The position numbers and the translations under genes were made by a program. A stretch of 12,712 nucleotides of DNA. It comes from a virus (taxonomy: Duplodnaviria > Heunggongvirae > Uroviricota > Caudoviricetes). This document shows, in pieces, positions 1-12,712 of the stretch; the first letter of the stretch is position 1; every line of letters begins with the position of its first letter. The DNA lies in the IMG/VR virus record IMGVR_UViG_2657245439_000011, positions 1 to 12,712 of that record. The stretch is one strand, 5' to 3'. Under the pieces are notes generated by a model. The model had not been told where the DNA came from, made no database searches, and saw nothing but the letters and a program-made list of their open reading frames with translations.

Positions 1-241
1 AATCAGAATGATAAAGATTCTCCAAAAAAATCTTCATGGTAACCGTCCCTCTCGAAGGATGTTTTTCAGTATCCGGCTAAAAGGGATGAGGCCATAAGAC
101 ATAACAATTACAGAAGGAGTAACTTTCATTTGTTCCATGTTAACCACTTTTTCAGGGGTCCTTTTATTAGATTATCCTGATTATAAACGAATAATCCATT
201 TACGGAATTTTTGTCTGTAAAATACTACTGTATTCAGGAGT

Positions 242-276
242 AAATGGACGGAGATGTATCATCGCCGTCCATTTTT
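242..276. terminator. Hairpin downstream of nlpC, possible bidirectional intrinsic terminator
   Basis: Stem 242-251 pairs with 265-274 (core atggacgg/ccgtccat), 13-nt loop, T-run on the plus side and A-rich on the other. Lies 8 nt downstream of the nlpC stop (284-286, minus strand). Confidence 0.45.
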
Positions 277-283
277 CGACATA

Positions 284-748
284 CTAGATTCGTCTCGCCT
301 GCCAGAAATTTTTCTGCCAATAAACATTATCGAGTGAGGAACGCATCACTCCCTTGCTGGTAGAGGCGTGGATAAATTGGTTGTTGGTATCATAAATACC
401 TACATGCAAACCATTTTGTCCGGAGCCCGTTTTGAAAAAGACCAGGTCACCAGGCAGCAACTCGTCTTTATCAATTTGCGTGCCGATAGAGGCTTGTTCT
501 TTGGTTTCTCGGGGCAGCTGCAAATCGAAACGATCGCGCATCGTCACAACCACAAACCCCGAACAGTCCACACCGCGCCGCGTCATGCCACCATAACGAT
601 ACGGCGTGCCATGCCAGCTCTGTAGCTGGTCGTTCAAACCGGCAATAACGGTAATCGAATCAGAAAGTCTGGCATTTGGCGGCGGTGCTTTATGGTGGCT
701 ACACCCGGCCAGAAACAGTGCTGTGATCAAAATAAGGCAGAAACGCAT
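284..748 (-). CDS. nlpC: NlpC/P60-family lipoprotein (cell-wall endopeptidase family)
   Basis: 154-aa ORF with ATG at 748. Signal peptide with lipobox LAGC, catalytic-Cys context DCSGFV and His context GLHVGIYD typical of NlpC/P60. Near-identical to my recollection of E. coli NlpC, and in the expected position next to btuD. Confidence 0.95.
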   Translation of the reverse strand: MRFCLILITALFLAGCSHHKAPPPNARLSDSITVIAGLNDQLQSWHGTPYRYGGMTRRGVDCSGFVVVTMRDRFDLQLPRETKEQASIGTQIDKDELLPGDLVFFKTGSGQNGLHVGIYDTNNQFIHASTSKGVMRSSLDNVYWQKNFWQARRI

Positions 749-825
749 TCCGTACGGTTCCTCTGTTTTTTATTCTTGCATTAATTTAGCGTCGTAATTA
801 CCCGATTTTCAAGATACTAATGAAA

Positions 826-1575
826 TCAGATGGTCGAAATCAGCATTCTGTGACCTTCGATATCCAGACGGCGAAAATTCATCCCATAGGCCTGCGCCAG
901 ATTTGGCGGCGTGAGCACCTCTTCCCTGCGTCCACTGGCCAGCATTTTTCCACCTTTTAGCAACCACGCCCGATGCGCATGACGCAATGTATGGTTGAGA
1001 TCGTGACTGCTCATCACAATCGCCAGTCCTTGCTGACACAGCGCGCTCAGAATTTTGTCTAATGCACTTTGTTGCGCAACATCAAGACTGTTCATAGGCT
1101 CATCAAGAAGTAGTAATTGGCCTGCGGGATTGGCTTGTGGTGTGATTTGCAGCACCACCGCAGCAAGACGTACGCGTTGCCATTCGCCGCCGGAAAGTTG
1201 ATTGGTGCTACGTCCGAGTTTGTCATCAAGAGCCAGCGCCCCTGCGACATCATTCAGTAGTTCGGTACGCGTTTTATCGTGCTGATGCAGTGTCAGGTAG
1301 TGCCAGACCGGCATTGCAAACGGCGGCGTCTGCTGTTGTGAAAGATAGGCGCGATGCAGCGCGAGTTTTGTTGCGGACCATGCTTCCAGTGGTTGCCCCG
1401 CGAACTGAATGCTTCCCTTACCGCTGGTCATTCCGGCCATTCGTGCAAGCAAGGTACTCTTACCCGCGCCGTTCGGCCCCACCAGGTGCAGGATCTCCCC
1501 AGCCCGAACCTCGCCAGAAAGCGGCCCCAGGCGGGTAGATTCCGCAACATCCTGTAACTGCATCACAATAGACAT
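826..1575 (-). CDS. btuD: Vitamin B12 ABC importer ATP-binding subunit
   Basis: 249 aa. Walker [13 protein letters not shown] signature LSGGEWQR, Walker B LLLLDEP. Start ATG shares one base with the btuE stop (TAATG), as in E. coli btuE-btuD. Confidence 0.97.
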
Positions 1576-2126
1576 TATTTTGCCAACGCCAGTTTAATGC
1601 TTTCCATCACAATGGGATCTTCCGGCGTCATATCCGGGGAAAAACGCTGGATGACCAATCCGTCCCTGCCAACTAAAAATTTCTCAAAATTCCATAAAAT
1701 ATCATCAGGGTACAGCGGTGCACGACCTTTGCTGACCATACGGGCATAGAATCCGCTCTCTTCCGGCGCGACTGCGGTCGGCGCTGCGGCAATCAATTTT
1801 TGATACAGCGGATGGCGTCCTTCGCCATTAACTTCAATCTTACTGAACATCGGGAACGTCACCCCCCATGTGGTGGTACAGTAAGTTTTAATCTCTTCAT
1901 CGCTGCCCGGTTCTTGTTCCAGAAACTGGTTGCACGGGAATCCCAGCACCACAAAACCACGATCGGCCCAGGCTTTCTGAATATTCTCCAACTGCTCATA
2001 TTGCGGCGTTAAGCCACACTTTGAGGCGACATTGACAATCAACAGCACATTACCGGCGTACTTCTCCAGCGTGGTCACTTCACCGTCGATATCTTTCACT
2101 ACGGTCGTCAGAATGGAATCTTGCAT
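1575..2126 (-). CDS. btuE: Glutathione peroxidase-family protein
   Basis: 183 aa. GPx motifs NVASKCG (peroxidatic Cys), [15 protein letters not shown]. Matches E. coli BtuE as recalled. Confidence 0.97.
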
Positions 2127-2188
2127 CGTTTCTCCTGGGTGTGGTCAGTAAAAATCTTAGCTTTTAATCATAGACCGTCTTTTTGCGG

Positions 2189-3169
2189 CTAACGTCCTGC
2201 TTTTAACAATAACCAGATAAACACCGGCGCACCCAACGTTGCGGTGACCACGCCAATAGGCAGCTCTGCGGCAGCTAATGCCAGGCGCGCTACAATATCG
2301 GCCAGCAGCAATGCGCTCGCCCCTGCCAGCGCGCAGCCGGGAAGTAATACGCGATGATCGGTTAAACCACACAGCCGGAGAATATGGGGGATCACCAGAC
2401 CAATAAAGCCGATAGCACCCGCCAGCGCCACACTGACGCCAACCATCCAGCCGGTCGCTGCCACCAACACATTGCGCCAGAACCACAGGGGTAAACCCAG
2501 TTGCCGCGCCGAGATCTCGCCAAGTGCTAACATATTCATTGGCCTGGACTGACAACAGATCCACAACAACACGGGGATCAATGCCAGCATCAGCCAGCTT
2601 TGCCGCCAGTCTACGCCGCCAAAACCGCCCATCATCCAGTACATCAGCTGACGTAAATCAACAGAGGTGGAAAAGTAGATAGCCCACGTCATTAGTGCGC
2701 TACAGATAATCCCTAATGCAACGCCAGCCAGCAATAACCGACTGGTCGAAAGATGACGACGGGCGAAACGTAAGAGTATTAAAGTGATGATAAGCGCGCC
2801 AGCAATCGCACACAGCCCCAGCGCCCAGTTGGGGAGTTGCCCTTGCCCAAGCAATACCGCGGCGATAAGCCCCACGCCTGCGCCATTAGAGACGCCAAGT
2901 AGTCCAGGTTCTGCCAGAGGATTTTCGAACAACGCCTGCATTACAGCGCCGGATATAGCCAGCGCCGCACCAACCAGCAATACAGCCAGCGTACGTGGCA
3001 GGCGAATTTGCCAGACGAACAGTTCGCCACGAGGAGTAAACCAGTCACCTGGCGAGATCCATTGTTCACCGGCGCAAAGGCTTAAGAGAAGCGCCAGCAG
3101 CATCAAAACTGACAGGCATAATAACCAGCGAATATTTTGTCGCTGTTGTTGGCGGGCAAGTGTCAGCAT
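2189..3169 (-). CDS. btuC: Vitamin B12 ABC importer permease
   Basis: 326 aa, highly hydrophobic polytopic protein, ATG at 3167-3169 (minus). Matches E. coli BtuC as recalled. Confidence 0.97.
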
Positions 3170-3232
3170 GGTATCCGTTCTGCTGAAGTGTCATGGCGTT
3201 GATTTTACGGTGACTCTTCGACAGTGAAAAGA

Positions 3233-3253
3233 AAAAAGGCCGCAGAGCGGCCA
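3233..3253 (-). terminator. Rho-independent terminator (minus-strand sense)
   Basis: Minus strand reads GGCCGC-tct-GCGGCC followed by TTTTTT (plus coordinates: stem 3239-3244 / 3248-3253, A-run 3233-3238). Sits between the element and the btuC start; may be the retained host terminator or the terminator of the int/orf131 transcript. Confidence 0.55.
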
Positions 3254-3358
3254 TAAACACAAACAAAAATCAATAAGTTAGATAATTATCAAAGACTTAC
3301 AGACACACAAAAACACAGCCAACCACAACAAATAACAGGGATGTGGTCACTTTGTGGA

Positions 3359-3754
3359 TCATTCGCTCCCCTCTTTTTCCTTATTTCGTTGAACGCCAAT
3401 TGCGACACACGTACTAAGCAAATCTTTACATTTCTCTACATCTTCAGACTTACGCAATTTGATGCTTTTTACAGACTGCGGGCTACTGTCCGTAGCACGA
3501 TACATCGTTATTTCAATATCATTTCGGTCTAAGAGTCCCATAATGGCTTTTGCAACCTCCACACCCTTCTTCGCGAAATCAAAGAACAGAGCAAGTTTAT
3601 ATGGATTTTCGACGGAAAAAACTTCAATTTTGCTAAAACCAACATCGTGTAGAGAAAAATATTGCTCAACCTCATCTCGAAGTTCTGGATCGCATACAAT
3701 GTCTATTCTCCAGTACTGACCTAAATGCAAATCGCTATTAACTGTTTTTTCCAC
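3359..3754 (-). CDS. Hypothetical protein, AT-rich accessory gene between int and the host junction
   Basis: ORF track gives 3359..3775 from TTG. I prefer the in-frame GTG at 3754-3752, preceded by AAGGAGG (minus strand, plus coordinates 3766-3760) at 5-nt spacing; this SD overlaps the int stop codon. Visibly more AT-rich than int. No recognisable motif and no TM segment. Confidence 0.55.
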   Translation of the reverse strand: MEKTVNSDLHLGQYWRIDIVCDPELRDEVEQYFSLHDVGFSKIEVFSVENPYKLALFFDFAKKGVEVAKAIMGLLDRNDIEITMYRATDSSPQSVKSIKLRKSEDVEKCKDLLSTCVAIGVQRNKEKEGSE

Positions 3755-3764
3755 AACATCCTCC

Positions 3765-4739
3765 TTACCCAGCAATAGGATTAAATCTCACCGCATCCTG
3801 CAAGTAATCCGGCGCAAGATGGGCATAAATCATCGTTGTCTGAATCTTTGCGTGCCCCAGAATTTTCTGGAGCGTCAGAATATTGCCGCCGTTCATCATG
3901 AAATGACTGGCGAAGGTGTGGCGCAGCGCATGAACAGCCTGGCCGTCAGGAACATCAGGTGCGACCGTTTTGATGACATCGCGAACCAATGGATAATCCA
4001 GCGTCGGAAACACCAGTTTCCCGCCCCGTTTTTTGATCTTTTCAAACAGGCTTTCAGAAATAGGAACGGTACGGTTTTTGCTGTTCTTCGTTTTTGAAAA
4101 AGTGATTCGACAATGAAGAACACGGCGCTGCTCCAGTGCCGCTACCTCGCCCCATCGCGCCCCGGTCGACAGAAGGATTTCGACAGCCAGCCGTTCATCG
4201 GGATTTTCAGCCAGTGCATCCAGCAACTGAACACATTCAGACTTACTCAGATATCCCATTTCGCGCTCGTTAACCTTCATTCCTTTAAGGCCTTGAACGG
4301 GGTTATCGTTAAGAAAATGGCCGGATGAGATGAGTGCGGTAAACATCGCGCTTAACGCCCCAATCTCTCGATTAATGGTGCTGGGCTGTATCCCCTGCTC
4401 TATCCTGGACACACGTAGCTCGGTGAGCATCGTTGTATTAAGTTTATGCACACACGGGTCATCCATTGCCTCACTCAAGCGCAGCAATTTAAGGCGCGTG
4501 TTATGCCCTGACTTCATTAGCTGGCCGTGGTATTTCCACCACAAGTCAATAAGCACCGACAGCGGACGGCGATCAATGGAGTTTCCTTTCCACTCATTGT
4601 TATGCTGTTGCGCCAGCACCCACCGCTCATATAAAACTGCATCCGATTTCGTTTTAAATTTTTTGCGAATGCGTTTGCCTTTACGCCCCTCAGGGCGCAT
4701 GTCAAGAAGATACCCTCCCGGAATTGATTTTATGCTCAT
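3765..4739 (-). CDS. int: Tyrosine recombinase, P2-type phage integrase
   Basis: Box I arginine TGARWGE, box II HALRHTFASHF, nucleophile Tyr in TTMIYAHL. N-terminus MSIKSIPGGY...GRKGKRIRKKF resembles P2 Int (recalled MAIKKL...GRNGKRIRRKF). The ORF track start (4889) is rejected in favour of ATG 4739-4737, which matches the family N-terminus and does not overlap the upstream gene. Confidence 0.93.
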   Translation of the reverse strand: MSIKSIPGGYLLDMRPEGRKGKRIRKKFKTKSDAVLYERWVLAQQHNNEWKGNSIDRRPLSVLIDLWWKYHGQLMKSGHNTRLKLLRLSEAMDDPCVHKLNTTMLTELRVSRIEQGIQPSTINREIGALSAMFTALISSGHFLNDNPVQGLKGMKVNEREMGYLSKSECVQLLDALAENPDERLAVEILLSTGARWGEVAALEQRRVLHCRITFSKTKNSKNRTVPISESLFEKIKKRGGKLVFPTLDYPLVRDVIKTVAPDVPDGQAVHALRHTFASHFMMNGGNILTLQKILGHAKIQTTMIYAHLAPDYLQDAVRFNPIAG

Positions 4740-4788
4740 TCGTGAAACCCCAGCGTTACAAGACCACCATGCCCCCAGCGTTCCATGA

Positions 4789-5100
4789 TTAACCGGGCTG
4801 TGTACCAGTCTTGCGGGATTTTTGAGAAGACGATGTGTTTTCTGGCCCATCAGGGGAGAGAGAGGGACTGATCTGCCCAGCAGCCTCATTTGTTTTTCCC
4901 GTCATAAGCCATATAGTGTATTTTTCGAAATCCTTAGAATTAATTACGCGATCAACAACGCTTAAACCAACCTCTCTTTTACCGCTCTCATAATTCTTTA
5001 TAGTTCCGAGATTTATCCCAGTAACATCTGCAAACTCAGCTTGAGTTAACCCTTCACTTTTCCGTATCTCTTTCAGTTTTTTTTCGTACCCACTTGACAT
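4789..5100 (-). CDS. XRE-family helix-turn-helix repressor, P2 C-like immunity repressor
   Basis: 103 aa, ATG 5100-5098 with GGAGA SD. HTH LTQAEFADVTGINLGTIKNYESGKR. C-terminal KYTIWLMTG...GQISPSL resembles P2 C as recalled. Placed upstream of int on the same strand and divergent from the early operon, as in P2. Confidence 0.85.
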   Translation of the reverse strand: MSSGYEKKLKEIRKSEGLTQAEFADVTGINLGTIKNYESGKREVGLSVVDRVINSKDFEKYTIWLMTGKTNEAAGQISPSLSPDGPENTSSSQKSRKTGTQPG

Positions 5101-5110
5101 GGTGGTCTCC

Positions 5111-5155
5111 AGACGACTAAATTAACCCTAAAAGTCGCCTAGAGACGACTTTTAG
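5111..5155. promoter_or_regulatory. Operator-like repeat cluster in the repressor / early-operon switch region
   Basis: Direct repeat AGACGACT at 5111-5118 and 5143-5150. Inverted repeat CTAAAAGTCG (5128-5137) / CGACTTTTAG (5146-5155) with 8-bp spacer. All within the 91-bp gap between the divergent starts at 5100 and 5192. Confidence 0.4.
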
Positions 5156-5191
5156 CAACAAATAACCACAGACTGAACAGGTTATCACATC

Positions 5192-5470
5192 ATGACAAAG
5201 CTCTTGAACACATACGAGCAAGCGGATTTTGAGCGTTTGGCGGCGTTCTACCCATACCGCGATGAGCATGGATTACCGGTACTCGAAGAAAGCCTGAAAG
5301 ATTACGCGAAGCGTACCAATCAAACTGTTAATGCAGTGAAAAGGCAGGCTGACAGAGCAGCCCTTCCCATCAACCAAGAAGAAAAAAACTCAAAACGTAC
5401 AGTAAATCTCTTCGCAATTTTCCTGAAAACCATCAGAAACGCAGAGAAATATGTGCAGATGACAAAATAA
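5192..5470 (+). CDS. Small early protein, possibly a Cox/Apl-like regulator
   Basis: 92 aa, first gene of the early operon, divergent from the repressor (the position of P2 cox / 186 apl). Segment YAKRTNQTVNAVKRQADRAALP loosely resembles the P2 Cox HTH region as recalled. Weak SD. Confidence 0.5.
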   Translation: MTKLLNTYEQADFERLAAFYPYRDEHGLPVLEESLKDYAKRTNQTVNAVKRQADRAALPINQEEKNSKRTVNLFAIFLKTIRNAEKYVQMTK

Positions 5471-5484
5471 CGAGGTGTCATTTT

Positions 5485-5823
5485 ATGCTGAAGCAACGCC
5501 GTAATTTTCGCACCGAAACGGAACGCCAAGCTAACCGTTTCGCTACCAGCGCATCACGCAGCAACATCCGCTACAGCCTGAGCGAGACGCACGCAACGCC
5601 AGATGGCCATACAGTAAAACAAATTGGCGAACACACCTGGCTGATTGAAAAAGCTGGAATCGTGGTTCACAGATGCCAACGCAACCCATTTACCGGAAAC
5701 CGCATTTTTGCTCTGAGCAACGGCGACACTCAGTTTGGACAGGATTTCACATTGTACGAAGCACTTCGCACGGTTGATCGTCTGCTTCGCGGGCAAAGTT
5801 TTATTAAACAGACTGATTTATAA
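5485..5823 (+). CDS. Hypothetical early protein (112 aa)
   Basis: ATG 5485 preceded by GAGGTG SD; begins 14 nt after the previous stop. No recognisable motif. Confidence 0.55.
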   Translation: MLKQRRNFRTETERQANRFATSASRSNIRYSLSETHATPDGHTVKQIGEHTWLIEKAGIVVHRCQRNPFTGNRIFALSNGDTQFGQDFTLYEALRTVDRLLRGQSFIKQTDL

Positions 5824-5833
5824 CAGGTGCGTT

Positions 5834-6112
5834 ATGACCAAAGAGCATGCACAAGGTGTATTTATCCGTTTTATTGATTTTCGCGGTGAACTGTTATTGC
5901 GCGCATCAGCTATTGATGGAGTTGTCCCATCAGAAAAAAATGCAGCTACTTACGTTTATCTGAACGGCACGCGCCTGACCGTAGAACTTCCGTACCAGAC
6001 TGTACACGGAATCATTAGCGAAGCTGAAAAAGCACGTAAGATTAATGGCGATGAACCCTATATCGAAATTATTTGTATGGATTCAGAAGCTGAAATTCAG
6101 AAAGCAGATTAA
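5834..6112 (+). CDS. Hypothetical early protein (92 aa)
   Basis: The ORF track starts at 5735 and overlaps the previous gene; the ATG at 5834 with AGGTG SD, 10 nt after the upstream stop, is the more plausible start. Confidence 0.55.
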   Translation: MTKEHAQGVFIRFIDFRGELLLRASAIDGVVPSEKNAATYVYLNGTRLTVELPYQTVHGIISEAEKARKINGDEPYIEIICMDSEAEIQKAD

Positions 6113-6123
6113 AGGGCGTTGCG

Positions 6124-6366
6124 ATGGGCAAAGAATATAAAACTCTCATTAACAAAGCACTTGAGCGTTTTTATTTTCGCTTAAGTGCATCAGGTGCTCA
6201 TGCTGAACGTGCAGCCCGTGACTCATTGACCAGGGCAATCCGGAGTCTGTATGACGTGGCTTTTTACGCTGATGATCTGGATGCACTTAACGAACTTTCC
6301 GAGCTGATCTGTGCCGCAGAATGCGGGGAGCATATTGAACCGTATAAGCTGGGGAATATTGCATGA
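6124..6366 (+). CDS. Hypothetical early protein (80 aa)
   Basis: ATG 6124; tightly packed in the operon; its stop overlaps the next start as ATGA. Confidence 0.5.
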   Translation: MGKEYKTLINKALERFYFRLSASGAHAERAARDSLTRAIRSLYDVAFYADDLDALNELSELICAAECGEHIEPYKLGNIA

Positions 6367-6476
6367 GTATATTTATCTCATGGCTTGTCCTGATTATTTC
6401 GGTGGTCTGCGCCATTGGGATTATGCAAATTATTCATTCAGTAAAAAAGATTGAACGCATTTTCACTGGCGAATAA
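6363..6476 (+). CDS. Small hydrophobic peptide (37 aa), predicted single-pass membrane peptide
   Basis: Not in the ORF track. ATG 6363 overlaps the stop of the upstream ORF (ATGA). Translation MSIFISWLVLIISVVCAIGIMQIIHSVKKIERIFTGE: a hydrophobic stretch of about 20 residues followed by a basic tail. Confidence 0.35.
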   Translation: MSIFISWLVLIISVVCAIGIMQIIHSVKKIERIFTGE

Positions 6477-6563
6477 CAGCGCAAATAAAAACCCTAGGTT
6501 AAATAAGAAAATGTAAAAACAATCCGCATTCGCGGAGGTATTCGCACACGCCCAGGAGGCGTA

Positions 6564-6767
6564 ATGGCAATTAAGCATTTTCCTGTCGTTCGTTTCACTT
6601 CCAGAGGACGTGAATACGAAGTCGACGAACGCCTGATTACCACAATCGACAAACACCGCTCAGAAAAGGATGCACACCACATCTATCTCACTGACGGTAC
6701 TTACTTCTGCGCCACTAATGTGGCGCGGGTGAATCTTATCCGACAGGTACAGGATCCTCGCAAATGA
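6564..6767 (+). CDS. Hypothetical early protein (67 aa)
   Basis: Strong RBS: AGGAGG at 6554-6559, 4 nt before ATG 6564. Stop overlaps the next start as ATGA. Confidence 0.55.
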   Translation: MAIKHFPVVRFTSRGREYEVDERLITTIDKHRSEKDAHHIYLTDGTYFCATNVARVNLIRQVQDPRK

Positions 6768-6982
6768 GCAGGAGAAGAATCACTCGCAGACATCACCGCA
6801 CACACCTGAATTCCTCAGCAACGCTAAAGGCACTTATTCAAAGCGAGATCGGTGATTTCTTCGCGGGAGTTGGCTCACTAGGTGAACCAGAAACACCAGA
6901 AGCGATGCAGCGTGAGCTCATGATACGCATAGATAACACTTTTGATTTCTTCTACAGCATGCACGGAATTAAACAGAAATGA
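6764..6982 (+). CDS. Hypothetical early protein (72 aa), basic N-terminus
   Basis: ATG 6764 overlaps the upstream TGA (translational coupling). Arg/His-rich N-terminus RRRITRRHHRTH. Confidence 0.45.
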   Translation: MSRRRITRRHHRTHLNSSATLKALIQSEIGDFFAGVGSLGEPETPEAMQRELMIRIDNTFDFFYSMHGIKQK

Positions 6983-7090
6983 ACCTCAAGCCAGCAATAA
7001 CTACTCGTAGAACGCCAATTTCTGTAACCGACCGCTTCTGAGTTTTTTGGCAGGAAGCCTTCGCACATCCTTAGTAGAGAGAATTGCAGC

Positions 7091-7480
7091 ATGATTGACG
7101 CTCATGACTTCACAAGATGGGTGCGCACACAGGACACCCGTCTGGCTCCCATTCTTCGGGGATTATTTGATCTCTACATTCGTGGTCGTGACAACAGAGC
7201 ACGCACCACAAAACCGGAGAATGTGGATACCCTTTATTTCACAGTAGACGACTGCTACCGCGTGGACTTCACACCACACGGACTGGCGTTGCACTGCCTG
7301 ACACCGCACGGCGAATCACTGCTGGCGTATTACGACTCCCCGGCCTCCGTATTTGCGGCAATGCTGGCGCATCGCACTGCTGGCGGGTGTGTCTCGCTGA
7401 GTGAATACACCGCTGAATTTAACCGCCTTTCCACCATCTTCTTGCAGGAGTGGCAGCGCGTGACGGGATACCAGCCATGA
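7091..7480 (+). CDS. Hypothetical early protein (129 aa) immediately upstream of the replication gene
   Basis: ATG 7091; stop TGA 7478-7480 overlaps the ATG (7477) of the replication initiator. Confidence 0.55.
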   Translation: MIDAHDFTRWVRTQDTRLAPILRGLFDLYIRGRDNRARTTKPENVDTLYFTVDDCYRVDFTPHGLALHCLTPHGESLLAYYDSPASVFAAMLAHRTAGGCVSLSEYTAEFNRLSTIFLQEWQRVTGYQP

Positions 7481-10296
7481 GTGAGTTTGCATGGAGCTGG
7501 AATGAACCACGACCAGCCATTGATCCGGCCAGATTTACGGAGCACAGGCAGGAAACTGAAACCGACCTGCAACGCGCCATCCGTTACTACCTTGAGGCAG
7601 ACAAAAAGGCCCTGGAAGAACAGGAAGCGAAGGAGGAAGCCTTTTTCGCACAATCCACCGTGGGTAAAAAACTCATGGCATCCCTTGAGGAAGCCGGACA
7701 GCGTGAAAAGCTGGCACAAAGCATCATCAGCAAGCGTCAGGCAACAGAACAAGACCCGGTGGCCCGTGCTTTTGCCACACTGAAAGTGCTTCCCGTTTAT
7801 CTGCGTGAACCTCTGAGCCGCCACCTCTCTTTCCTGCGCAAAAAACAGGAATCCGATCGTCAGAAAGGCAAAAAGAGCTGGCAGGCTGAACGCTACGCGC
7901 GCGGAAACCTGCGCAAAATATTCGAACGCCTGGAACGCACCGATCACCGCTGGCTGACACCGGGTTATCGCTCCCTTACCGGACGCGAACGCCTGGACGA
8001 TTTGCTTTACCTGCCGCAGCTCAACAAACACCAGATACAGACGCTGGCCACCATGACGGCGGCGATGTTCAGCAGCACCTTCGAAAAACTCTGCGATAGC
8101 TTTGGCGCGACTGATGGCGAGCTGACCATGGATGTAACGCTGAAGGCGTATCAGATGCTGGCCCGCATGGCGTTACACCTGCACGCCATGCCTCCACATT
8201 ATGACGCACTGACAACAGACAAAGACCGGAGGAACGAACCGGACACGGAGCTGCTGCCGGGCGCAATCCTTCGCCTGACCTGTGCGGAATGGTGGAAACG
8301 CAAACTGTGGCTGTTACGTTGCGAGTGGCGGGAAGAACAACTCCGCGCCGCCTGTCTGGTTTCCAGAAAAACATCGCCCTATCTGAGTCAGGACGCATTA
8401 AGCGAGTTTCGCGCGCAGCGCGAGAAAACACGCGATTTCCTGAAAAGTTTCATGCTGGAAAACGAAGACGGGTTCACGATTGATCTCGAGACAGTGTATT
8501 ACGCGGGAGTAAGTAACCCGGTTCACCGTAAGGCAGAAATGATGGCCACCATGAAGGGGCTGGAACTTCTGGCCGAAGCCCGTGGCGACAGAGCGGTGTT
8601 TCTGACTGTCACCTGCCCGTCAAAATACCACGCCACAACAGAGAACGGTCATCCGAATCCCAAATGGAACGGGGCCACCATGCGCGACTCCAGCGATTAC
8701 CTGGTTAACACGTTTTTTGCGGCAGTCCGCAAAAAACTGAACCGCGACGGTCTGCGCTGGTATGGCATCCGCACGGTGGAGCCTCACCATGACGGCACCG
8801 TGCACTGGCATATGATGGTCTTTGCTCATCCGGAAGAAATCGACAGCATCGTGGCCATCACCCGCGATATTGCCATTCAGGAAGACCGCCACGAGCTGGG
8901 CAATGATATTACTCCGCGCTTTAAGGTGGAGTATGTCGACGGCTCAAAAGGCACACCAACCAGCTATATCGCGACCTACATCGGAAAAAACCTGGACAGC
9001 CGCGCCGTGGATGGCATCGACCCGAAAACGGGCAAGCCACGCGTTGACCACGAAACCGGAAAATCAATGGCCGAGAGCGTGGAACGCGCCATCGGCTGGG
9101 CGCGCCTTCACCGGGTTCGCCAGTTCCAGTTCTTTGGTATCCCCTCCCGTCAGGTGTGGCGTGAACTGCGCCGCCTTGCCAGCCAGATGGCACGCAACCC
9201 GGAAGGCCCGCAACGGCTGAAGGATGACGCAATGGATGCGGTACTCGCTGCCGCTGATGCCGGATGTTTTGCCACCTACATTGAAAAACAGGGTGGCGTG
9301 CTTGTTCCACGCAAGGACTACCTGATTCGCACCGCCTACGACCTCGCAGATGAGCTGAACGATTACGGCGAACAGAGCGTACAGATTTACGGGATCTGGT
9401 CACCACTCATCGGGGAATCCTCCCGTGTGTGCACGCATCCGGATAACTGGAAGCTGGTAAGACGTAAACCAGAACCGGAAGACAACGCCCACGAAAATGG
9501 TTTTGACCTTCAGGGCGGCCCTGCCGCCTCTTGGACTCGTGGCAATAACTGTCCCCGTGTACAGGAAACGGACAACAACGGGACAGAACAGCCGGAAGAA
9601 CGGCCAGCACCGTGGCCGCAGCTCCCTGACGGCGTTGAAGTGAACGAATGGGTGCGCTCACTGAAACGGCACGAACGCCGGGCGCTGATGCGTTCGCTTC
9701 GTGACAAACAGGCAAAAAACAGCAGTGATGAAATGCAGAGCTGGACACAGAGCCGCAAACAGCAGCGGCCTTTGCCTGATAACCACGAATTACTCGCTAA
9801 AGAATGGCGGGAGTCTGCTGAATCTCTCGGCCTGCATATCGGTGAACAGCAGATGCAGCACCTGTTACGGGGCGGCAGCCTGTACGTTGACGGCAGCATC
9901 ATTGCACCGCAGGGATATGAAATTGTACGTAAACCGGATACCCGCCCGGACAGCCGAATCACGCAGCTCTGGCAACGCCTGAGCCGTAACCACGGCGTAA
10001 GCAGCACGGAGATCCGCCATAACCCGGTCGCCAGCTATCTGGAACAACTAGGGGCATCAGACCCTGAAGCCGCCGCACGCCTGGCATCCACACTTCAGCA
10101 AGACCAGAACACCATGAAAACACCCGTTACCGTACTTTCTGACATGCTGCGCGCCATCCGCGACGCAGAGCACGAACAGAGAATCAGTGAAACAACTGAA
10201 CGCGCCCGCCGCAAAGCAGACCTGCTGCGGGGTGGCCTGACCAGTGGAAACAAAAAACAGACAAAAACGGGATTTAAAAATCCTGTAACCGATTAA
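7477..10296 (+). CDS. Rolling-circle replication initiator (HUH endonuclease, phage P2 gene A / phiX174 gene A superfamily)
   Basis: HUH motif in GTVHWHMMVF; catalytic tyrosine pair in YIATYIGK (Y-x-x-x-Y-x-x-K). Start taken as ATG 7477 (ATGA overlap with the upstream stop) rather than the track's GTG 7450; 939 aa. Long low-complexity, charged C-terminal region after the catalytic core. Confidence 0.9.
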   Translation: MSEFAWSWNEPRPAIDPARFTEHRQETETDLQRAIRYYLEADKKALEEQEAKEEAFFAQSTVGKKLMASLEEAGQREKLAQSIISKRQATEQDPVARAFATLKVLPVYLREPLSRHLSFLRKKQESDRQKGKKSWQAERYARGNLRKIFERLERTDHRWLTPGYRSLTGRERLDDLLYLPQLNKHQIQTLATMTAAMFSSTFEKLCDSFGATDGELTMDVTLKAYQMLARMALHLHAMPPHYDALTTDKDRRNEPDTELLPGAILRLTCAEWWKRKLWLLRCEWREEQLRAACLVSRKTSPYLSQDALSEFRAQREKTRDFLKSFMLENEDGFTIDLETVYYAGVSNPVHRKAEMMATMKGLELLAEARGDRAVFLTVTCPSKYHATTENGHPNPKWNGATMRDSSDYLVNTFFAAVRKKLNRDGLRWYGIRTVEPHHDGTVHWHMMVFAHPEEIDSIVAITRDIAIQEDRHELGNDITPRFKVEYVDGSKGTPTSYIATYIGKNLDSRAVDGIDPKTGKPRVDHETGKSMAESVERAIGWARLHRVRQFQFFGIPSRQVWRELRRLASQMARNPEGPQRLKDDAMDAVLAAADAGCFATYIEKQGGVLVPRKDYLIRTAYDLADELNDYGEQSVQIYGIWSPLIGESSRVCTHPDNWKLVRRKPEPEDNAHENGFDLQGGPAASWTRGNNCPRVQETDNNGTEQPEERPAPWPQLPDGVEVNEWVRSLKRHERRALMRSLRDKQAKNSSDEMQSWTQSRKQQRPLPDNHELLAKEWRESAESLGLHIGEQQMQHLLRGGSLYVDGSIIAPQGYEIVRKPDTRPDSRITQLWQRLSRNHGVSSTEIRHNPVASYLEQLGASDPEAAARLASTLQQDQNTMKTPVTVLSDMLRAIRDAEHEQRISETTERARRKADLLRGGLTSGNKKQTKTGFKNPVTD

Positions 10297-10320
10297 TTAA
10301 TCAACATAAGGAAAAGCGAC

Positions 10321-11280
10321 ATGAAAATTTGTATCGACGACGGCTCCACCAACATCAAGCTGGCATGGACTGAGAACGGCGAACACCGCAACGCCATCAG
10401 CCCGAACAGCTTCAAGTCGGAATGGTCTGCGCCGTTCGGTGGCACGCAGCCCGCGAACTACATGCTTGATGGCGTGCGCTATGGTTTTGATCCGGTCAGC
10501 GATCGCTTTGTCCAGACGACCGACACGCAATACCAGTACAGCGATGTGAATGTCATTGCCATTCATCATGCGCTGGTCAAATCAGGCATCACGCCACAGG
10601 AGGTGGATGTGGTTGTCACCCTGCCACTGAGCGAGTATTTCGACACAAACGCACAGCCGGACATGGCCAACATCAACCGCAAAAAAGCGAACGTTATGCG
10701 CCCGGTGGAGTACCAAAACGGCGAGGCATTCACTATCCGTAACGTGCGGGTTATGCCTGAATCCATTCCGGCTGGCTTTAAAGCACTGGCTGACATGAGT
10801 CCGTTTGAATCCCTGCTGATTGTGGATTTGGGCGGAACCACGCTGGATGTGGCAAAGGTTCAGGGGCAACTGGCAGGTATCAGCCAGGTGTTTTGCGATC
10901 CACACGTAGGCGTTTCTCTGATGGCCGATGCCGTGCTGTCGGTGATGGCCACCAACGGTATGCGCACCAGTCACCACATCGCCAATACCATTATCGAACA
11001 TCGCCACGATGAAGCCTGGCTGCGCCAGCACATCCACAATGACGCGCATTACGCCAGCCTGATGGCAGTTATTCGTGAAAAGGAGGAAACACTGAAACAA
11101 CGCGTGATCCGCGCGCTGGCGGTTTTTTCGGGTTACGGGCGGGTGATGGTTGTCGGTGGAGGGGCGGAGATTGTGGCACCCGCTATCCGCGAAGCCTGCG
11201 GAGTTAATGCGACTTTCATCGCGGACGGGGTGCCACAGTTTGCTCTGGTTAATGGGCTGTACGCAATGGACAAGGAGTAA
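10321..11280 (+). CDS. parM: Actin-like segregation ATPase, ParM/StbA family
   Basis: 319 aa. N-terminus MKICIDDGSTNIKLAW (R1 ParM recalled as MLVFIDDGSTNIKLQW). Phosphate-2 motif IVDLGGTTLDV and adenosine motif VMVVGGGAEI. Similarity appears to run the full length. SD AAGGAA upstream. Confidence 0.9.
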   Translation: MKICIDDGSTNIKLAWTENGEHRNAISPNSFKSEWSAPFGGTQPANYMLDGVRYGFDPVSDRFVQTTDTQYQYSDVNVIAIHHALVKSGITPQEVDVVVTLPLSEYFDTNAQPDMANINRKKANVMRPVEYQNGEAFTIRNVRVMPESIPAGFKALADMSPFESLLIVDLGGTTLDVAKVQGQLAGISQVFCDPHVGVSLMADAVLSVMATNGMRTSHHIANTIIEHRHDEAWLRQHIHNDAHYASLMAVIREKEETLKQRVIRALAVFSGYGRVMVVGGGAEIVAPAIREACGVNATFIADGVPQFALVNGLYAMDKE

Positions 11281-11284
11281 ACCA

Positions 11285-11596
11285 ATGACGACTCCAACCA
11301 GACGGATAAGTTTCTATCTGAAGCCCACCGCCGTCAAGAACGAAGGAGAAGCATGCGCCTGGCTGGACAGCCTTACACCAGAAGCCCGCAAAAGCGGCCA
11401 ACGCGTGGCTTTTCTGGCCGGGCTGGCACTTCTGAAAATGAATCCGGCAGAGGCTTACCGACTGGCTGCATGGGCTGATGATGAGGTGTTATCAGTGACA
11501 CAAACCAAGACAGAACGCCCCGCGTCACAGCCAGTATCAACCGCACAGATAACCAGTCAGATGGCCGGAAATATCCGGGCGTTATTTCCTGAATAA
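11285..11596 (+). CDS. parR: ParR/StbB-like centromere-binding adaptor
   Basis: 103 aa from ATG 11285 (GGAG 10 nt upstream), directly after parM. Resembles R1 ParR as recalled: ISFYLKP vs IAFKLNP, LDSLTPEARKSGQRVAFLAGLAL vs LDSIPQGERSRLNRAALTAGLAL, C-terminal NIRALFPE vs ILRSLFPKE. Confidence 0.75.
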   Translation: MTTPTRRISFYLKPTAVKNEGEACAWLDSLTPEARKSGQRVAFLAGLALLKMNPAEAYRLAAWADDEVLSVTQTKTERPASQPVSTAQITSQMAGNIRALFPE

Positions 11597-11599
11597 CAT

Positions 11600-11670
11600 C
11601 AGGGCGTATTCGCCCTGCCACCAATCCCATAACATAAAGAACGGGGTGCAAATCACTATACACCCCGTTC
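11600..11670. other. Two GC-rich hairpins immediately downstream of parR
   Basis: Hairpin 1: CAGGGCG-tatt-CGCCCTG (11600-11617). Hairpin 2: GAACGGGGTG-12 nt loop-CACCCCGTTC (11639-11670). Neither is followed by a clear plus-strand U-tract; hairpin 2 has a modest T-rich tail on the minus strand. Confidence 0.45.
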
Positions 11671-11881
11671 CAATACAAACCATCAGAAGATCTACACATC
11701 TTTCTCAAATGGCCAAGTAATCGAGCTGGTTCAGGAATAAGCATGCTGCCAACACAAGTGAAGGAGATAAAACTGTAGAACTGATCAATCGTTGGAAACA
11801 AGTATTGACAGTATGTTCGAGTAACCCAACTGGATAGATTTTATGCTGATTATCCATACAGTAAAAAAGTAAGGATACTCT

Positions 11882-11910
11882 TTGAATTACGCCAGAAAGA
11901 GTGGTAACAT
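11882..11910 (+). promoter_or_regulatory. Candidate sigma70-type promoter for the downstream AAA ATPase gene
   Basis: TTGAAT (11882-11887), 17-nt spacer, TAACAT (11905-11910); about 65 nt upstream of ATG 11975. Hexamer match only. Confidence 0.3.
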
Positions 11911-11974
11911 TAGTCAATGATTTTCATTAATGTAGTTACCAGCTTACACAAGCTGATGTTTTATTGGGGGTTTT

Positions 11975-12712
11975 ATGGTAAACGTGAGGGAGGATGAACT
12001 TTTCAAACTCATCGAGCAAGGCATCAAAGGCAACGCAAATGCATTTACACTCCTATGCAGAAAGATGATTAACAACATCCGTAAAAATGATGAGGCTTTA
12101 GCTTCTAAGCTGGCTTCGTTAGTTGCTGAGGGAACAGTATTACGTGGGGCATCTAGTAAGGCTCCTATGCCTGTGGATGGAGACTCCAGACGAAACCTTT
12201 TGCAGGAAACATCTGTCAACGCAATTGTTGAAGAACCTGTATGGAATACGGATATCTCAAAGAAGCTGGAGTCAATTGTTAACGAAAGAGAGAATGCGGT
12301 TTCTTTGTTCAAAGCTGGTCTTGAACCTGTGAAGACGGTTTTACTTTCTGGCCCGCCAGGCGTAGGCAAAACAATGTCCGCACATTGGCTTGCTGCAAAG
12401 TTAAATTTACCTCTTTTAACATTGGATCTCTCATCTGTAATGAGTTCTCTTTTGGGAAAAACAGGTAATAATATTAAATCCGTTATGGATTATGCCAAAG
12501 AGAAACCATGTGTCCTTTTGCTTGATGAATTTGATGCTGTTGCAAAAAGACGTGATGATGACAGGGACGTTGGAGAATTAAAACGTTTAGTTACTGTACT
12601 CCTACAGACCATAGATGAGTGGCCAGCGACCTCGCTTCTTGTTGCTGCGACTAATCACCCTGATATCTTAGATCCGGCTGTTTGGCGTCGATTTGAGCAC
12701 ATCCTTAAATTT
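11975..12712 (+). CDS. Classical AAA ATPase, 3' end truncated by the window (first 246 codons seen)
   Basis: Absent from the ORF track because it has no stop inside the window. In-frame stop at 11954-11956, first ATG at 11975 with a GGGGG run 4 nt upstream. Walker A GPPGVGKT, Walker B VLLLDEFD, sensor-1 AATN, second-region-of-homology HPDILDPAVWRRF (arginine finger). About 120-aa N-terminal domain of unknown type. Gene and upstream spacer are visibly more AT-rich than the rep/parMR block. Confidence 0.8.
   Translation, partial: MVNVREDELFKLIEQGIKGNANAFTLLCRKMINNIRKNDEALASKLASLVAEGTVLRGASSKAPMPVDGDSRRNLLQETSVNAIVEEPVWNTDISKKLESIVNERENAVSLFKAGLEPVKTVLLSGPPGVGKTMSAHWLAAKLNLPLLTLDLSSVMSSLLGKTGNNIKSVMDYAKEKPCVLLLDEFDAVAKRRDDDRDVGELKRLVTVLLQTIDEWPATSLLVAATNHPDILDPAVWRRFEHILKF

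Follow-up and report, generated by a model that had tools for sequence, protein, structure and literature searches.

A conserved AT-rich gene fills a cassette slot between int and att in a P2-like prophage

What is a small AT-rich gene doing next to the integrase gene (int) of a P2-like prophage, on the side of the attachment site (att)? The gene in question, here called ORF131 after its open reading frame (ORF) of 131 amino acids (aa), lies in a 12,712-nucleotide (nt) stretch of tailed-phage DNA (IMG/VR record IMGVR_UViG_2657245439_000011, positions 1 to 12,712; the window) that consists of the left end of a P2-like prophage and adjoining host DNA. An earlier note, made from the sequence letters, had read there a 131-aa ORF with a GTG start and a strong Shine-Dalgarno (SD) sequence overlapping the int stop, placed between int and the host junction, and had proposed an acquired gene that is co-transcribed with int in the lysogen. 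The reading of the ORF stands: ORF131 is a genuine conserved protein-coding accessory gene, and it is one of at least six unrelated cargoes found between near-identical int genes and the same Int arm repeats in E. coli and Salmonella. Our explanation taken whole, that ORF131 is an accessory gene in an int-att cassette slot, is expressed in the lysogen and has an exclusion or defence role, is offered tentatively, with a chance of being right that we put slightly below even. Its parts differ in strength; for the anatomy of the locus and the logic of its expression our confidence is high.

Is ORF131 a gene at all? The longest minus-strand ORF, 3359..3775, begins with TTG and would specify 138 aa; starting at the internal GTG gives 131 aa. 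The GTG start is favoured by the profile of PHROG 14142, of which ORF131 is a full-length match (E = 8.6e-70) and whose positions 1-128 of 128 align to residues 8-135 of the TTG ORF. Salmonella orthologues have ATG at the codon homologous to the E. coli GTG, and the identical 131-aa protein is annotated by PGAP in several complete genomes as WP_000416304.1. The SD sequence overlaps the int stop codon TAA (3765-3767), and the gap between the two genes is 10 nt. Pairwise comparison by the Nei-Gojobori method of E. coli and Salmonella orthologues at 60-78% identity gives ratios of nonsynonymous to synonymous substitution (dN/dS) of 0.19-0.32 for ORF131 and 0.06-0.09 for the adjacent int. The frame is kept, with no stops at 60% identity, and the start position is conserved, so that the check for coding conservation comes out on the side of a coding sequence. 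The exact protein is found on at least 1,000 contigs.

Was the gene acquired? As the earlier note had it, ORF131 is the more AT-rich of the two genes, with a GC content of 39.4% (34.8% at third codon positions) versus 49.4% (53.8%) for int. A recent arrival does not fit: for each pair of orthologues the synonymous divergence, dS, of ORF131 is close to that of int (for example 1.30 versus 1.19, and 0.66 versus 0.85), which argues for long co-divergence with this int lineage.

Could the region instead be the int-proximal arm of the attachment site, or a decaying remnant, with no function as a gene? The 25-bp (base pair) att core at attL is repeated in strain A1 at the other prophage end (locus L003, 18118-18142), and on the minus strand it is the intrinsic terminator of ihfA. 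The phage integrates into the ihfA terminator and leaves one copy at each end, so that a terminator is retained both for ihfA, at attR, and for the C-int-ORF131 unit, at attL. Downstream of ORF131 lies a pair of direct repeats that fit the P2-type Int arm consensus tgTGGaCa (PMC3448106). The double repeat has a single match in the window versus 0.01 expected, its second copy contains the ORF131 stop codon TGA, and it is kept in the orthologous loci of E. coli and Salmonella and behind all the alternative cargoes examined. On the attR side the arm sequences are TGTGGACA and TAGTGGAACA. Three matches to the consensus for integration host factor (IHF) occur in the window, two of them in the int-proximal arm, where they are candidate sites. 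The locus therefore has the architecture of a P2-type attP, with a repeated core, at least two direct arm repeats on each side and consensus sites for accessory factors. The int-proximal arm is thus the 109 bp at 3253-3361, so the body of ORF131 is not att arm. The region is AT-rich like att arms, and some database copies are truncated; the purifying selection, intact frames and fixed start position described above, together with the confinement of the arm elements to 3253-3361, leave the idea of a non-functional stretch with next to no probability.

It is a curious coincidence that a P2-like phage should target the ihfA terminator. P2 integration requires IHF.

The arrangement differs from that of P2 itself, where, as the earlier note had said, no gene separates int from the attachment site: in the annotated P2 record the Int site of the P' arm and the 3' end of int overlap, and about 80 bp separate the int stop from the core. 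In nine further P2-type int loci, all of other genera, the start of the double repeat is 1-20 nt past the int stop, versus 403 nt here.

What else can occupy the space? Comparison of slot contents, which the earlier note had suggested, reveals a cassette site with at least six cargo types, ORF131 included, behind int genes that are 98-100% identical (at the nucleotide level in E. coli, and at the protein level for loci L035 and L036) and before the same arm repeats. Besides ORF131, which is present in this window, in E2348/69, in O26:H11 11368 and in O104:H4 2011C-3493, the cargoes are a 120-aa protein with a 145-aa protein that has a coiled coil and a C-terminal hydrophobic tail (cargo b; AST81 and O145:H28); a 132-aa protein with a DUF1640-like 145-aa protein (cargo c; STEC388 and 300709); a 233-aa protein with a 140-aa protein that has a sub-threshold HEPN match (cargo d; locus L035); a 166-aa protein with a DUF1640-like protein (cargo e; O157:H7 FRIK944 and Salmonella s1); and a 127-aa protein with a 99-aa protein (cargo f; F344). 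Homology of ORF131 to the alternative cargo proteins was considered and rejected, as hhalign gave probabilities below 1%. When the variants are aligned base by base, the left edge of the cassette falls in the last few int codons (after ...RFNP) and the right edge falls exactly at ATGATCCACAAAGTGACCAC, the arm repeats; the alternative cargoes, too, have their start at the 3' end of int or within it. The int gene is present in 299 of the 5,426 complete E. coli genomes, and 159 of these have the full int-ORF131-btuC arrangement. A census of slot contents covered 60 genomes spread over the 306 carriers: about 29 had ORF131 and about 15 cargo b, the rest having other cargoes or truncations. No empty slot was seen among the best 60 flank-joined matches.

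How does this slot relate to what has been described before? An int-att hotspot that holds 3% of P2 defence systems has been reported (PMC13586616), and a third P2 hotspot lies between a tail gene and CI (bioRxiv 10.1101/2024.10.15.618418). The present locus resembles the int-att hotspot (PMC13586616) in its position between int and att, in its variable content among near-identical phages and in its AT-rich cargo. ORF131 lies between the int stop (3765) and the core and arm, inside the att-delimited element, and so travels with the phage. The differences are two. What defines the published hotspot is recognised defence systems, of which ORF131 and the five alternatives match none; and here the edges of the cassette can be placed precisely, in the final codons of int and at the Int arm repeats.

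Is ORF131 expressed in the lysogen? The earlier note had proposed co-transcription with int. Drawing the organisation of the C-int operon by analogy with the annotated P2 record, we find it plausible that ORF131 is the last cistron of that operon. Neither a terminator-like nor a promoter-like site occurs on the minus strand from the C gene, whose end is at 5100, to 3253, and the first terminator downstream of C-int-ORF131 is the ihfA-terminator copy at 3252-3238. A moron in the Hendrix sense brings its own promoter and terminator and differs in composition from its neighbours. ORF131 does differ in composition from int; there is no promoter-like site within int, and the sole terminator is host-derived and lies in attL. 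The overlapping SD suggests that its translation is coupled to that of int. On this scheme ORF131 would be the third cistron of the C-int operon, read from the maintenance promoter in the lysogen; its strong SD would give efficient translation coupled to int; the transcript would end in attL, at the terminator copy, short of the btuC promoter region; and the product would be made whenever repressor is made, that is, in the lysogen.

What kind of protein is it? The product has a mass of 15.0 kDa and an isoelectric point (pI) of 5.15, with no transmembrane or hydrophobic segment. Structure prediction, one of the checks proposed in the earlier note, gives an AlphaFold2 model from 46 sequences with a mean per-residue confidence (pLDDT) of 81.8 and a predicted template-modelling score of 0.75, in which the elements follow the order b1-a1-b2-b3-a2-b4-b5-a3-b6 between disordered termini; the most conserved stretch, IMGLLNRND[IV]E[IV]E, is at the a2-b4 junction. 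A small soluble alpha/beta protein is thus predicted. Foldseek comparison of the model was uninformative, with best E values of 0.03 against the PDB and 0.017 against BFVD, and a sequence-profile search of the PDB gave no match. We recognised no catalytic, helix-turn-helix (HTH) or other DNA-binding motif in ORF131, and most likely the protein acts by binding another macromolecule rather than by catalysis. A metal site of conserved cysteines was considered and rejected, since two of the four family-conserved cysteines are Val and Arg in the window protein.

The relatives of ORF131 form a narrow family. Searched with a profile, 1.84 billion representative proteins yielded only 16 matches, and a 5.8-billion-sequence set yielded 69 clusters in which every organism-named source belongs to the Enterobacterales. 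All 46 aligned relatives match PHROG 14142, and pI values in the family range from 5.0 to 8.8. The INPHARED phage records contain no match to ORF131 by blastn or tblastn, nor to a distant member by tblastn, and no paper in the literature mentions WP_000416304, WP_000416308 or O3K_11700. In the databases the family is often represented by 57-aa fragments that start at the internal MGLL motif (P0067, P0073, P0075). A gene split by integration was ruled out as their source; they are under-called GTG-start genes (L032) or true 5' truncations joined to a hairpin resembling a repetitive extragenic palindrome (L031, 5863-6171).

Where are the relatives located? The distant ones (clade B; 126-138 aa, 30-44% identity) do not adjoin int; they occupy the other end of the prophage, where the 3' end of a host gene is followed by the terminator and core, the arm-like repeats and then the ORF. 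Their orientation is convergent with hok or ogr, or they stand ahead of tail-fibre genes. In the prophage of E. coli SC418, which was read whole, int is at one end and points outward and the family member is at the other end and points inward, so that in the circular phage the family gene lies on the int strand just across attP. The family is therefore found at the same int-to-late-gene junction in both groups, and what differs is the side on which attP lies: downstream of the gene in the window phage, upstream in the rest.

This constant company of attP suggests one alternative role. A recombination accessory factor, whether arm-binding, directional or architectural, would account for family members always adjoining Int arm repeats on either side of attP, and one could point as well to the ORF131 stop codon inside an arm repeat, to the start of clade B genes within about 60-200 nt of arm-like repeats, and to the similar dS of ORF131 and int. 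Against such a role, the same int and arm accompany at least five unrelated cargoes that replace ORF131, a Cox-like excisionase is already present, the protein has no HTH or DNA-binding signature and its pI is not basic. Moreover, none of 80 P2-type int loci from other species has a family member within 4 kb. We rate a part in site-specific recombination as quite improbable.

The clade B position bears also on a second alternative, an anti-defence or establishment factor. Such a protein would be produced early in infection, while the genome is circular, from the C-int transcript, and would neutralise a host or resident-prophage system or aid lysogeny. Many anti-defence proteins are small, soluble and without enzymatic motif, and ORF131 answers to this description. 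The clade B gene, on the same strand as int and across attP from it, is colinear with int only in the circular form, so that it is cut off from the C-int promoter after integration. However, clade B members are bracketed by hairpin terminators, and the strong one between the arm repeats and the gene disfavours read-through from int; the pI range of the family is not that of a consistently acidic DNA mimic; and in the window phage ORF131 remains attached to the lysogenic operon. An anti-defence or establishment role seems improbable to us. In some distant members a hairpin terminator is located immediately upstream of the SD (L015, 6880-6925; L024, 1314-1341; L032, upstream of 5788). No consensus sigma-70 promoter was found for the clade B members.

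The neighbours of the distant relatives are typical prophage-end cargo: hok, PemIK and YafO toxin-antitoxin genes, and a methyltransferase with Com. Might ORF131, then, be a host-directed conversion or addiction function, such as a modulator of host physiology, a toxin-like protein or a stabilising element? The proximity of relatives to hok/gef, PemIK and YafO modules at prophage ends would fit, as would the hok gene at the other end of the window's prophage type, and the frequent truncated or frameshifted copies (P0002, P0004, P0006, L031) could reflect counter-selection. What tells against it is that ORF131 stands alone, without a partner antitoxin or antisense RNA (Rfam detects no family in the window at gathering thresholds), that it matches no toxin family, and that purifying selection and very wide occurrence disfavour a costly toxin. 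We give a conversion or addiction function little credence. The narrower proposal of a type II toxin-antitoxin module was rejected: there is a single gene between int and att, and it matches neither toxin nor antitoxin families. At the other prophage end in strain A1 (L003, 16282-17854), gene D and ogr are separated by a DUF2971 gene, and ogr and attR by a gene for a Hok/Gef toxin, so the region flanking attP carries cargo on both sides in this phage type.

One clade B member, WP_133252896.1 in NZ_CM143727.1 (L117, 3010-3396), is named 'RuvC family protein' by RefSeq. Taken at face value, the product name would make the family RNase H-like nucleases of the RuvC type. No HMM (hidden Markov model), PDB-profile or fold evidence bears the name out, and we attach hardly any probability to a RuvC-family nuclease; the label is probably an annotation artefact, and it could propagate.

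We return to the exclusion or defence role. In phage λ the exclusion genes rexA and rexB are co-transcribed with the cI repressor gene, in the lysogenic maintenance operon. ORF131 would be like them in being an accessory gene downstream in a lysogenic operon, constitutive in the lysogen, but there is no sequence or fold similarity, and rexAB is a two-component membrane system whereas ORF131 is a single small soluble protein. The P2 genes old, tin and Z/fun are non-essential AT-rich cargo, expressed from the prophage, that exclude other phages. ORF131 is likewise an AT-rich cargo gene, and of the same phage family; the P2 genes differ in occupying other slots (the A-portal and tail regions), in having their own promoters and in being unrelated in sequence, while ORF131 appears to borrow the C-int promoter. 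By analogy with these genes and with the published int-att hotspot, ORF131 may be a superinfection exclusion or defence factor that benefits the lysogen, a role that we rank as the likeliest of those weighed here but, taken by itself, as less probable than not.

Several results weigh against this role. The long co-divergence of ORF131 with int differs from the rapid turnover typical of defence cargo. ORF131 has no PADLOC v2 match at E <= 10, and the alternative cargo proteins have none except coiled-coil noise, so that the slot at this att site is not established as holding defence genes. Pfam and NCBIfam have no match to ORF131, and a scan of all 46 relatives gave no consistent weak family; the earlier note had likewise recognised no motif. 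Finally, a terminator precedes the clade B genes and no consensus promoter is seen there, so expression in the lysogen is not universal in the family.

If the family as a whole has one kind of activity, what might it be? We suggest, as an unlikely proposal, that PHROG 14142 is an unrecognised single-protein effector, directed against phages or satellites or serving counter-defence, whose fold lacks a close relative among solved structures and which sits next to attP on either side in P2-like phages of the Enterobacterales. Members on the int side would be wired to the immunity operon, and those on the far side would be cut from int by integration, so that their expression could depend on the integration state.

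The features of the window are collected in Table 1. The host genes nlpC, btuD, btuE and btuC are on the minus strand and reach 3169. The host/prophage junction is at 3252/3253, as the match to all 5,426 complete E. coli genomes stops at 3252. The order C, int, 10 nt, ORF, about 190 nt, btuC is the same in every E. coli and Salmonella locus long enough to show it. On the plus strand are the Cox-like, DUF4761, gene A and ParM/ParR genes.

Table 1. Coordinates of features in the 12,712-nt window
Feature	Positions	Strand	Basis or remark
btuC (host, flanks attL)	2189..3169	-	ORF list, genome identity
att core AAAGAAAAAAGGCCGCAGAGCGGCC, 25 bp, attL copy	3228..3252		identical 25 bp at attR beside ihfA
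Intrinsic terminator GGCCGCTCTGCGGCC then TTTTTTCTTT, copy of ihfA terminator	3228..3252	-	stem 3252..3238 and T tract
Two matches to IHF consensus WATCAANNNNTTR	3268-3280, 3287-3299	+	between core and arm repeats; candidate sites
Int arm direct repeats TGTGGTCA (3342-3349) and TGTGGATCA (3353-3361)	3342..3361	+	P2-type
ORF131 coding sequence	3359..3754	-	GTG 3752-3754, stop TGA 3359-3361; PHROG 14142 member
Shine-Dalgarno sequence AAGGAGG	3760..3766	-	read from sequence; 5 nt before GTG
P2-type tyrosine integrase gene (int), 324 aa	3765..4739	-	domain matches: Int_N and Phage_integrase
C-type immunity repressor gene (HTH_3, phrog_147)	4789..5100	-	first gene of presumed C-int-ORF131 operon
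Cox-like excisionase gene	5192-5470	+	
Replication gene A	7450-10296	+	
ParM gene	10321-11280	+	Pfam StbA_N 3e-82, ParM_N 6e-69
Plasmid_stab_B/ParR-like gene	11150-11596	+	partner of ParM

The ParM gene directly follows replication gene A, and the pair of ParM and ParR-like genes is present also in the SC418 prophage. Such plasmid-type partition genes hint at an option of plasmid-like maintenance for these P2-like phages. At about 11700-12712 the GC content drops to 37-43%, in the gene A-portal (old/tin) hotspot. There too the cargo varies among near-identical prophages, being an AAA ATPase and an S8 peptidase in strain A1 and a 135-aa hypothetical protein in O26:H11 11368. In strain A1 the portal gene of the otherwise identical prophage is interrupted by ISCro1, an insertion sequence of the IS66 family (L001, 32777-36530), which makes that copy defective. 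In O111:H-/H8 strains (ecoli_genomes H62-H67 and H177-H184) a deletion fuses the 5' part of int to the DUF4761 gene; the repressor and cox genes are gone while ORF131 and attL are retained, so that ORF131 is left without its presumed promoter in a defective prophage.

How much of this is new? That there is an accessory hotspot beside the integrase gene of P2-like phages is already known, and ORF131 is an annotated hypothetical protein that belongs, over its full length, to a PHROG without functional annotation. New here are the exact boundaries of the cassette, the repertoire of six cargoes at the ihfA/btuC site, the occurrence of the family on either side of attP, and the lack of a recognisable fold relative. 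ORF131 is a sound and modestly interesting candidate for screening, and no surprising finding.

What does the locus mean for the P2-like phages? Here the int-att slot, so far reported as a minor defence hotspot, behaves as a cassette site with sharp boundaries; its cargoes, six at the least, are unrelated to one another and wholly uncharacterised. The commonest of them is ORF131, in the sample drawn from the E. coli genomes with this int, which number roughly 300 among 5,426 complete ones. The carriers of ORF131 include reference pathogens: the enteropathogenic strain E2348/69, O26:H11 11368, O104:H4 2011C-3493 and O111 strains. ORF131 and its alternatives may offer a cheap route to new prophage exclusion or counter-defence functions. 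If, on the other hand, all the cargoes should prove inert, it would follow that not every variable prophage slot holds immunity genes.

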